Shown here piece by piece: positions 14,800 to 17,022 of a stretch of DNA of 64,000 bases. Made by a program: the position numbers and the translations under genes. The notes beneath the pieces were generated by a model that had not been told where the DNA came from, did not search any database, and was given only the letters and a program-made list of their open reading frames with translations. Location of the stretch: NCBI GenBank assembly GCA_038087875.1, contig CM075990.1:18230001-18294000 (forward strand), read 5' to 3'. The first letter of the stretch is position 1. The number at the start of each line of letters is the position of its first letter. Source of the DNA: Malacoraja senta. Lineage: Eukaryota.

Positions 14800-17022
14800 T
14801 TATGCTAGATTTAGGCCATTAGGCTCTTTTGTCTGTAGCGCTTCTATCCATAGCCTCTCTGCTCTCTTGCGTCTCCCTGTTGTCCAATTTATGTTTGTTT
14901 CCAGACCCATGATCTCTAGGGACTGGATCCCATGTTGCTGGAAGTGTCTGCTAATGGGTATGGATTGGTCTCCCCTTGTGATGTTGCTGAGGTGTCCTGT
15001 CAGCCTGACTCTCATGCTGTTACCTGTTTCGCCTATGTACAGTAAGTTGCACTCTTTACATCTAATTGCATACACCACATTCTTTTGCTCACAGGTTATC
15101 CTCTGTGCTATCTGGCCTTTCTTCCCTGTTACACTGTTCTCTATATTTTTGGCTATTACTAAATGGGTGCAGGCTCCACACCGTCTCTGCCCACAGTCTG
15201 GGTCTGTGTGTAGACTTGTACTGACCAGGATGTCCTTCAGATTTTTAGCCCTCTTGAATGCTGACATTACCTTGTACCCCTTTAGTGTGGCAAATCCCCT
15301 TTGGAATTGTTCAAAACGGCCCTTGACTATTTTGTGGGCCTGGACTGCCATGTTGCCATATCTTGTGATTAGTGGCAAGTTCAATGTCGTCCCCGGCCTA
15401 GGTCTGGGTGCTTGTATGCTACTTAGAAAATCTGACTTAATGTATCTTAATTTCCTTTTGCAGTAACCCCTCTGTCTGAGGGCGGTGAATAGGGTGCTTG
15501 TGGCCTGGTTGAAATCCTCCTCCCTAGTACATATACGGTGGAAGCGGGTCAGTTGTGACTTGACGATACCCCTAAAGGTGTGTTTTGGGTGGTGGCTCGT
15601 GGTATGTAGGAGGGTGTGGGTGTCTGTGGGTTTGAAAAATACTTTGGTAGCTAATTTATGGTCTTGGTTCTCTGATGGTAGTTTAAAGACAGTGGTGTCA
15701 AGGAAGTCCACCCTCTCCTGGCTAGTCATGACCTTTACCTTGATGGAAGGGTGGTGGGCATTGAGTATGTCAATAAACTCCTGTAATTCCCCTTCTGAGT
15801 GTGTCCACACTCCCCAAATGTCATCTAGGAATCTATAGTAACACATTGGACGCTTAGGACATTTGTGGAAAGCTGTCTCCTCCCATTCTGCCATGTATAT
15901 GTTGGCATAAGCTGGGGCAAACTTCTTCCCCATTGCTGTACCTTTGACTTGTAAATAGAACTCCCCGTTAAATTCAAAGTCATTCTTAGTCAAACCCAGA
16001 TCAAGTAGTTTGACTAGGGCCTCGTCTGGTCTCTCTGGGTCAGGATTTCTCTGTAGGATGTTTTTAACTGCCTGTATCCCCCTGTCTGTCTCTATGTTTG
16101 TGTACAGGCTTTCCACATCCATGGTGAAGAGTATTGCATTGGGCGGTATGTTGAGGGAGTTAACTATTCGGGTGAAGTGGTAGGTGTCTTTGATGTAGCT
16201 GGGGTGTTGTTGTGCCAGTGGATTGAGGTAGTGGTCAATGTATTCTGCTACCCCATAGGATTCGCTACTACAGTCTGACACTATGGGCCTACCTGGCGGT
16301 ATTTCTCCAGGCACTGTCCACGTGTCTGGGTTTTTGTGTATCTTTGGGAGCATGTAGAATTTCCTCGCCCTGGGTTGTGTTCCTGTTAGGTATTCTACTT
16401 GTTTCTCTAGGATGTATCCTGATGTCTTAAGCTCTTCCAAAATGTCCCCTATTTCCTTTTGTGTTTCTTTATATATGGGCTCATCTAACTTAGTGTAGTG
16501 TTCTATCTTGTTCAGTTGTCTATGTGCCTCGAAGAGGTACTGTTGTCTGTCCATGATAACTATACTGCTCCCCTTGTCTGCTGGTTTGATCACTATCTCG
16601 TTATTATCTCTCAGCTCTGTCAAGGCCTGCCTCTCTTTTCTGGTGATGTTGGACTTATCTTTTGTTGTGGGCATATCCTCAATGGCTGATGCTGTCTCTG
16701 TTATAAATTCTGTTATCTGTCCAGGGACATCCTCGTCGTCTGGGGTCCACCCTGTGAGTGGCCTAAAGGGTATAATTTCTGCAGGCTCTGCGCCACTGAA
16801 GTGGTGTATTAACTTAATGGATCGGTAAAATCTGTGTAGGTCCCCCTGCACTTGTTCCTTGTGGGATTTGGGAGTAGGGACGAAGGTGAGGCCTCTGTTC
16901 AATACCCTCTCTTGGGTTTCGGTAAGGGAGAATGTTTGAGAAAGGTTGATGATTGTTTTCCCTAATTGTGGGCCCTGCCTCTCTTGGCATGGTGTCCCTA
17001 ACAGTTTAAATGCTTCATCCAC
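14800..17022 (-). CDS. PLE ORF2: reverse transcriptase + Cys knuckle + GIY-YIG endonuclease (probably expressed as an ORF1-ORF2 -1 frameshift fusion)
   Basis: PLE RT motifs INLS..L...LNRGLTFVPTP, IKPADKGSSIVIMD, FYMLPKIHK, GRPIVS, MDVESLYTNI, GTAMGKKFAPAYANIYM, RFLDDIW, VDFLD. Linker CGQRRCGAC. Endonuclease NVVYAIRCKECNLLYIGET..R...H...H...E..WI..LQTKEPNGLN. The codon at 17022-17020 is GTG and the first in-frame ATG is residue 117. Confidence 0.95.
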   Translation of the reverse strand: MDEAFKLLGTPCQERQGPQLGKTIINLSQTFSLTETQERVLNRGLTFVPTPKSHKEQVQGDLHRFYRSIKLIHHFSGAEPAEIIPFRPLTGWTPDDEDVPGQITEFITETASAIEDMPTTKDKSNITRKERQALTELRDNNEIVIKPADKGSSIVIMDRQQYLFEAHRQLNKIEHYTKLDEPIYKETQKEIGDILEELKTSGYILEKQVEYLTGTQPRARKFYMLPKIHKNPDTWTVPGEIPPGRPIVSDCSSESYGVAEYIDHYLNPLAQQHPSYIKDTYHFTRIVNSLNIPPNAILFTMDVESLYTNIETDRGIQAVKNILQRNPDPERPDEALVKLLDLGLTKNDFEFNGEFYLQVKGTAMGKKFAPAYANIYMAEWEETAFHKCPKRPMCYYRFLDDIWGVWTHSEGELQEFIDILNAHHPSIKVKVMTSQERVDFLDTTVFKLPSENQDHKLATKVFFKPTDTHTLLHTTSHHPKHTFRGIVKSQLTRFHRICTREEDFNQATSTLFTALRQRGYCKRKLRYIKSDFLSSIQAPRPRPGTTLNLPLITRYGNMAVQAHKIVKGRFEQFQRGFATLKGYKVMSAFKRAKNLKDILVSTSLHTDPDCGQRRCGACTHLVIAKNIENSVTGKKGQIAQRITCEQKNVVYAIRCKECNLLYIGETGNSMRVRLTGHLSNITRGDQSIPISRHFQQHGIQSLEIMGLETNINWTTGRRKRAERLWIEALQTKEPNGLNLA
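16970..17010 (-). promoter_or_regulatory. Putative -1 programmed ribosomal frameshift signal (U_UUA_AAC plus downstream hairpin)
   Basis: ORF1 ends CAT TTA AAC TGT TAG. The heptamer TTTAAAC (17010-17004) is in the X_XXY_YYZ phase and ORF2 is in the -1 frame. A GC-rich stem GGG..CC.TGCC-AAGAGA-GGCA-GG.CCC (16998-16970) starts 5 nt downstream. Confidence 0.8.

Follow-up and report, generated by a model that had tools for sequence, protein, structure and literature searches.

The window, a 64,000-nt stretch of Malacoraja senta DNA, carries on its minus strand a retroelement, a Penelope-like element (PLE), present as two head-to-tail copies within (TTAGGG)n arrays, and raises the question of how the second open reading frame of this element (ORF2) is translated. 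The first ATG of ORF2 is codon 136 counted stop to stop (16674) and lies deep inside conserved sequence, since the motifs INLS (codon 44) and LNRGLTF (codon 60) precede it. The original prediction had placed this ATG at codon 117 and the PLE motif at codons ~25-51; counted from a GTG at 17022, these are the same positions. ORF2 overlaps the end of ORF1 by 79 nt in the -1 frame. ORF1 ends in CAT TTA AAC TGT TAG, and therefore holds U_UUA_AAC in its own phase, with the stop TAG (17000-16998) one codon past the heptamer. The predicted -1 overlap with an in-phase slippery heptamer (17010-17004) before the ORF1 stop was thus confirmed, and an X_XXY_YYZ sequence in zero-frame phase within a -1 overlap is one of the marks of a -1 frameshift signal. 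The heptamer had also been likened to the coronavirus slippery sequence, and it is identical to that of IBV as given in a passage of PMC5009743. The coordinates of all features are collected in the table.

Features of the retroelement and its ORF1/ORF2 junction in the window
Feature	Position	Strand	Remarks
Element copy 1	14602..22068	-	7467-bp unit
Element copy 2	22069..27145	-	head to tail with copy 1, 99.96% identical
ORF1	16998..18776	-	ATG at 18776, 592 aa
SGNH/GDSL esterase domain (predicted)	about 17471-17004	-	C-terminal part of ORF1
ORF2	14800..17079	-	759 aa stop to stop; PLE RT, Cx4CxxC linker and GIY-YIG endonuclease
Slippery heptamer U_UUA_AAC	17004..17010	-	ORF1 phase His-Leu-Asn; -1 frame Phe-Lys
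Spacer, 5 nt	16999..17003	-	
Bulged GC-rich hairpin, candidate stimulator	16970..16998	-	-12.4 kcal/mol, z -2.3
Type-I hammerhead-like ribozyme motif	18916..18973	-	pattern and fold; fold z only -1.15
Antisense GT-AG intron spanning the ORF1/ORF2 junction	16886..18368	+	X14 joint, X11 loose end

The best reading of this arrangement, and very probably the right one, is -1 programmed frameshifting, which would yield the 592-aa ORF1p and a 1325-aa fusion. ORF2 is likely translated only via a -1 frameshift at the conserved U_UUA_AAC. Most ribosomes would read ORF1 through to the stop one codon on and produce the esterase-bearing ORF1p. A fraction of the ribosomes would be held up at the hairpin 5 nt further on, the Leu and Asn tRNAs at U_UUA_AAC would re-pair simultaneously one base back, and the slipped ribosomes would resume from codon 26 of the ORF2 frame, as in gag-pol. 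The predicted ORF1-esterase-RT-endonuclease fusion has 591 residues before and 734 after the slip site, close to the ~1320 aa proposed originally. Ribosomes likely slip one base back here, because the heptamer is kept at the same spot of the overlap in dozens of relatives; the slip, and with it a slip rate and a ratio of the two products, we infer from the sequence. A passage of PMC5009743 ranks U_UUA_AAC and A_AAA_AAC with the heptamers on which mammalian ribosomes shift most readily.

A search of the skate's own genome gave 104 matches, and the 759-aa open frame recurs in most of the top-ranking ones. Heptamer and ORF1 stop are kept in all 30 own-genome loci fetched; across 151 nt, 28 of them do not differ at all, and two carry small indels downstream of the heptamer. 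An assembly error as the source of the frame offset was ruled out by these 30 loci.

For comparison between families, an alignment of 60 ORF2 proteins led to 79 metagenome and four genome loci, and in 27 of these 83 a relative of the SGNH ORF1 lies upstream of ORF2. Together with the window this gives 28 junctions. The -1 offset was scored at 27 of them, and the 28th (L124), for which the script's "frame 0" was a mis-assignment, is also -1 when read by eye, with A_UUA_AAC. The 28 minus five near-duplicates and L124 were treated as 23 families (window included), with a median ORF2 identity of about 34%. A strict X_XXY_YYZ heptamer stands at the site in 17 of the 23 (16 U_UUA_AAC, one A_AAA_AAC), and 22 of 23 pass a relaxed rule that was fixed post hoc, after the sequences had been seen, the site in L052 being picked by position. 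The five relaxed heptamers are G_UUA_AAU (twice), G_UUA_AAC, G_GUA_AAC and G_GAA_AAC; the remaining family has the non-slippery G_CUA_AAA. As a background, 3533 control codon positions of these ORF1s hold 11 strict and 19 relaxed heptamers (0.3-0.5%). The original prediction had proposed conservation of the heptamer in homologues as a check, and homologues lacking it as a refutation. The outcome speaks in its favour: the heptamer is kept in phase at the ORF1 end, is conserved at the codon level and is swapped for others in some lineages. The room for changing frame is tiny, because the ORF1 stop follows soon (at most one codon past the heptamer in 20/23 families) and the -1 frame opens just before it (at most two codons ahead in 7/23); in L074 it opens exactly at the heptamer, which alone makes up the overlap. 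Among 120 database ORF2 proteins listed, 49 reach far enough upstream, and 46 of these begin near FKL/VKL-like residues, which is how the heptamer reads in the -1 frame. A scan of viral contigs found no relatives. Four loci (L130-L133) in contigs filed as bacterial genomes hold animal PLEs of the same clade, most likely as host contamination.

The heptamer could also be a by-product of coding the last esterase helix, or mark polymerase slippage or some shift other than -1 ribosomal slippage. The esterase domain does end in Leu-Asn in most families, one family has G_CUA_AAA, and the stimulator is weak in a second group of loci described below. However, protein constraint cannot fix the codon used: the P-site Leu codon is TTA in 19 of 20 cases against 41 of 307 (13%) in the rest of these ORF1s (binomial P 4e-16, with families that are not independent), nor can it fix the T that precedes TTA in 16 of 19. 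Lineages with Phe-Leu, Lys-Asn or Glu-Asn also spell known slippery heptamers. The TTA bias and the swaps between heptamers amount to nucleotide conservation beyond what the protein needs. Polymerase slippage meets runs of only 3 nt at the site, which are short for transcriptional slippage, and no indels at the site appear in four runs among 40 of the 72 difference rows listed. These explanations are, taken together, very unlikely.

A second route to ORF2 would be a sense intron joining ORF1, or a 5' exon with an ATG, in frame to ORF2 through an acceptor AG near the ORF1 stop. PLEs can carry introns, and the same element family is spliced, though on the opposite strand. The ORF1 stop of the window is TAG with a T before it, and 17/23 families have a YAG no more than 30 nt past the heptamer. 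Against such an intron, the ORF1 stops vary between families (TAA 12, TAG 9, TGA 2), and acceptors with a pyrimidine tract are found in 6/23 families at unrelated positions, with none in the window. The RNA evidence consists of contigs from seven runs of related organisms, with small word shares, which give neither strand nor level and may be DNA. In four of these runs no joint falls in 16780-17200 among 40 of the 72 difference rows listed, the one run recorded as RNA spans 16857-17375 gap-free, and every GT..AG joint seen is antisense. A sense intron would also leave the swaps between slippery heptamers unexplained, and is highly improbable as the source of ORF2.

The antisense RNA is multi-exon in the contigs of relatives, with canonical GT-AG introns in good splice-site contexts. 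Its plus-strand donors lie at 15041, 16885, 18449 and 19008, and its acceptors at 14905, 15464, 16725, 18369 and 18892. One joint, leading from about 19005 back to 14906, may come from a back-spliced circle or from splicing that connects tandem copies. An antisense open frame of 222 aa (14798-15466, plus strand) lies over the endonuclease region in both copies.

Finally, translation of ORF2 could begin independently: ribosomes might re-initiate once past the ORF1 stop, or start at a near-cognate codon such as the GTG at 17022 or at the internal ATG (codon 136). A near-cognate codon four codons before the heptamer exists in 12/23 families, and gene callers begin many database proteins at it; a published Neptune annotation uses an internal ORF2 ATG (coordinates given in PMC12602865). 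This codon, however, overlaps the codon of a conserved Trp of ORF1, in several families a stop in the -1 frame severs it from ORF2, and four of the 23 have no near-cognate codon at all. An ATG ahead of the GLxF motif was found in 1/23 families. The first ATGs are scattered from codon 62 to codon 392, so that conserved N-terminal motifs would be lost, and the heptamer would remain unexplained. An ATG inside the hairpin is out of frame with ORF2. An independent start has, on this evidence, hardly any probability. A spliced or separately initiated mRNA for ORF2 had been named as a possible refutation of frameshifting; neither conserved splicing nor another start is supported in the 23 families. 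The conserved heptamer with its codon-level bias and swaps, and the absence of a conserved ATG, near-cognate start or acceptor, support the frameshift interpretation. Among 23 longer proteins there is no true in-frame SGNH-RT fusion and one match is a chimeric-looking gene model; this lack of natural fusions is weak evidence either way.

Of all the evidence for frameshifting, that for a stimulator is the weakest. The GC-rich bulged hairpin predicted 5 nt after the heptamer is present in the window, but it is modest. Equally stable folds arose in 3 of 200 shuffles, and the z-score fades in longer context (-1.0 at 104 nt, +0.3 with upstream sequence included). In the 23 families the folding energy peaks in the 40 nt past the site (mean -9.4 versus -2 to -6 kcal/mol elsewhere). 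In 11 families this 40-nt segment ranks first in stability among about 21 local segments. The z value against shuffles is negative in 18/23, with a mean of only -1.0, and the GC content is 50% at the site versus 41% in the flanks. L074 has no structure past the heptamer and the second group folds weakly, so the putative stimulating hairpin is not universal. A crude search for H-type pseudoknots found none in the window and candidates in 4/23 families at p<=0.125, none of them conserved. Two coding-strand TTAGGG hexamers (16992-16987 and 16966-16961, minus strand) lie on either side of the hairpin, probably by chance; they are absent at these places in most homologues.

The second group comes from the other 56 fetched loci. 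After removal of 19 without the ORF2 N-terminus, two cut by the contig end and nine near-duplicates recognized by eye, 26 loci remained, some of them close relatives of each other. In an RT tree built from the fetched loci only, they form a separate branch except L078. Most of them give no endonuclease match, and their SGNH ORF1 is divergent (23 of 24 tested match the SGNH profile). A heptamer is present in 24 of the 26: U_UUA_AAC in 18, G_UUA_AAC in three, U_UUU_UUA in two (L080, L081) and A_AAA_AAC in one (L078, a copy with a downstream stop). One of the remaining two has an imperfect G_UCA_AAC and the other has no heptamer. In the large, mostly EN-less group L082-L123 the same heptamer stands 36-38 codons ahead of GLxF, with GCC-N7-AGG recurring downstream instead of a stable hairpin.

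The skate genome also contains a second, dispersed PLE family (L031-L048; 36-37% RT identity), some copies of which have single long ORFs (1083 and 1213 aa). As a negative control, this family gave no SGNH match, and 0 of 19 copies had a heptamer at the corresponding position. No SGNH match came from the LINE fragments of L031-L050 either.

The assignment of both ORF products is based on visible motifs and on profile matches. In ORF1 the esterase motifs GDS, G, GxN and DxxH are visible. The SGNH Pfam E-values are 0.004 (PF13472) and 0.0009, both below the curated cutoff, so the esterase is a predicted one. Its best PDB match is 4C1B, an ORF1-encoded protein (E 0.029); the S-G-N-H blocks of ZfL2-1-type esterase ORF1p are recognizable, whereas similarity to this solved structure is weak. 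In one relative (L075:192-2651) a NADAR domain (E 4e-8) stands ahead of the esterase of ORF1. For ORF2, RVT_1 matched below (E 3e-6) and GIY-YIG above (E 5e-6) the Pfam cutoff; the endonuclease has CxxC between GIY and YIG, and two His are visible. The element has the CX2-5CxxC linker between RT and EN which, in passages of PMC8557442, is a Neptune trait shared with Nematis, Neptune being paraphyletic there.

The 3' end of copy 1 adjoins a (TTAGGG)n array and its 5' region contains ~600-bp repeats. Copy 2, with its heptamer at 24471-24477, is 5'-truncated and followed by telomeric repeats. Among the 30 own-genome loci, the 3' end is visible in 25: 14 end at telomeric repeats (four of them degenerate), 11 are head to tail, and none ends at unique DNA. 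The element is telomere-specific, yet it has an intact endonuclease. Telomeric repeats were also seen with the relatives L051, L058 and L059.

Athena/Terminon elements reportedly have a published ORF1-RT frameshift. The EN- telomeric PLEs Athena/Coprina resemble the present element in 3' telomeric joins and head-to-tail arrays, and differ from it in its intact GIY-YIG. The Fig. 1 legend of Craig et al. 2021 (PMC8557442) describes a PLE ORF1 that a frameshift with a pseudoknot can set apart, in a clade that is not readable from the legend, and the abstract describes canonical EN+ PLEs as single-ORF. As far as passages of that paper show, its two-ORF PLEs are alike in the differing frames of ORF1 and RT joined by a proposed frameshift, in a short reverse-complement telomeric attachment of the 3' end, and in 5' truncations capped with telomeric repeats. 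The present element differs from them in an intact C-terminal GIY-YIG and an ORF1 ending in SGNH, and in a hairpin-like candidate stimulator, no pseudoknot having been found, where theirs has a pseudoknot.

Esterases are described for Neptune1_Ren (Schneider et al. 2013, PMC3905857) and for Neptune-like PLEs of fish and molluscs (Rodriguez et al. 2017, PMC5408684). In passages of these two papers the SGNH esterase upstream of the PLE RT, the Cys-rich linker and the CCHH-type GIY-YIG agree with the present element, and neither a frameshift nor telomere-specific insertion is given. The killifish Neptune repeat.CL27 is annotated as two non-overlapping ORFs (ORF1 73-492, ORF2 ATG at 666), and the main text contains neither "frameshift" nor "esterase" (PMC12602865). 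By arithmetic from these coordinates alone, its ORF2 begins 173 nt past ORF1 with a -1 frame offset, which is what an internal ATG within the present architecture would give.

The 5-nt spacer, the candidate 3' structure and the order of a structural-like ORF before a polymerase ORF are shared with coronavirus ORF1a/1b and retroviral gag-pol. Coronaviruses have a three-stem pseudoknot in place of the weak hairpin, and the putative signal here belongs to a retroelement of cells, one from the PLE class, which is related to telomerase. The word "penelope" is absent from the first 300,000 characters of PMC5009743, and such a junction was not found in the passages of PMC6431247, PMC3846280, PMC4209133 and 10.64898/2026.07.22.740005. 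Literature searches for Neptune or Penelope with ribosomal frameshifting, or for Penelope with shark telomeric repeats, returned nothing. They gave no description of a conserved esterase/heptamer/RT-endonuclease junction; Gladyshev & Arkhipova 2007, Arkhipova et al. 2017 and Kapitonov & Jurka 2003 lay outside the search. Frameshift-separated PLE ORF1s and PLE esterases are already in print separately, as the passages cited above show.

If the fusion is true, the PLE enzyme would be a protein of ~1325 aa that includes ORF1 and the esterase and is made at a set ratio, in place of the free ~620-aa RT-endonuclease that annotations start at an internal ATG. This bears on the in vitro reconstitution of such PLEs and on the role of retrotransposon esterases. 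Dozens of -1 signals from natural cellular sources, combining the coronavirus heptamer with stimulators that are simple or weak, would also become available. Since the copies are telomere-specific, intact and almost identical to each other, the frameshift idea can be tested directly.

Cleavage at the hammerhead-like motif is predicted after 18922, which places the cut 145 nt ahead of the ORF1 ATG. An Rfam scan of 14550-22300 found neither a hammerhead nor a frameshift element, and returned four chance microRNA matches. As a wider and only tentative reading, on the doubtful side of even, a large animal PLE clade with EN+ and EN- members may carry an ancient esterase/heptamer/RT module. In the skate element the element's own hammerhead would cut the RNA 145 nt before ORF1, so that translation would take place on an uncapped RNA, with recoding in the manner of RNA viruses, and the fusion would be brought to telomeres. 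Such a module, if true, is so far undescribed for endonuclease-bearing PLEs.

Six tandem derivatives of 1561 bp (deletion type) are located at 53762-64000, in which the predicted hammerhead cut after 18922 is joined exactly to ORF2 position 15567. Because all six join exactly at this site, they suggest cleavage in vivo followed by re-joining. Next to them, at 43532-53768, about 31 tandem 330-bp units consist only of the 3' end (14602-14802) and the 5' end (21920-22075) of the element, and this array is an element-derived satellite.
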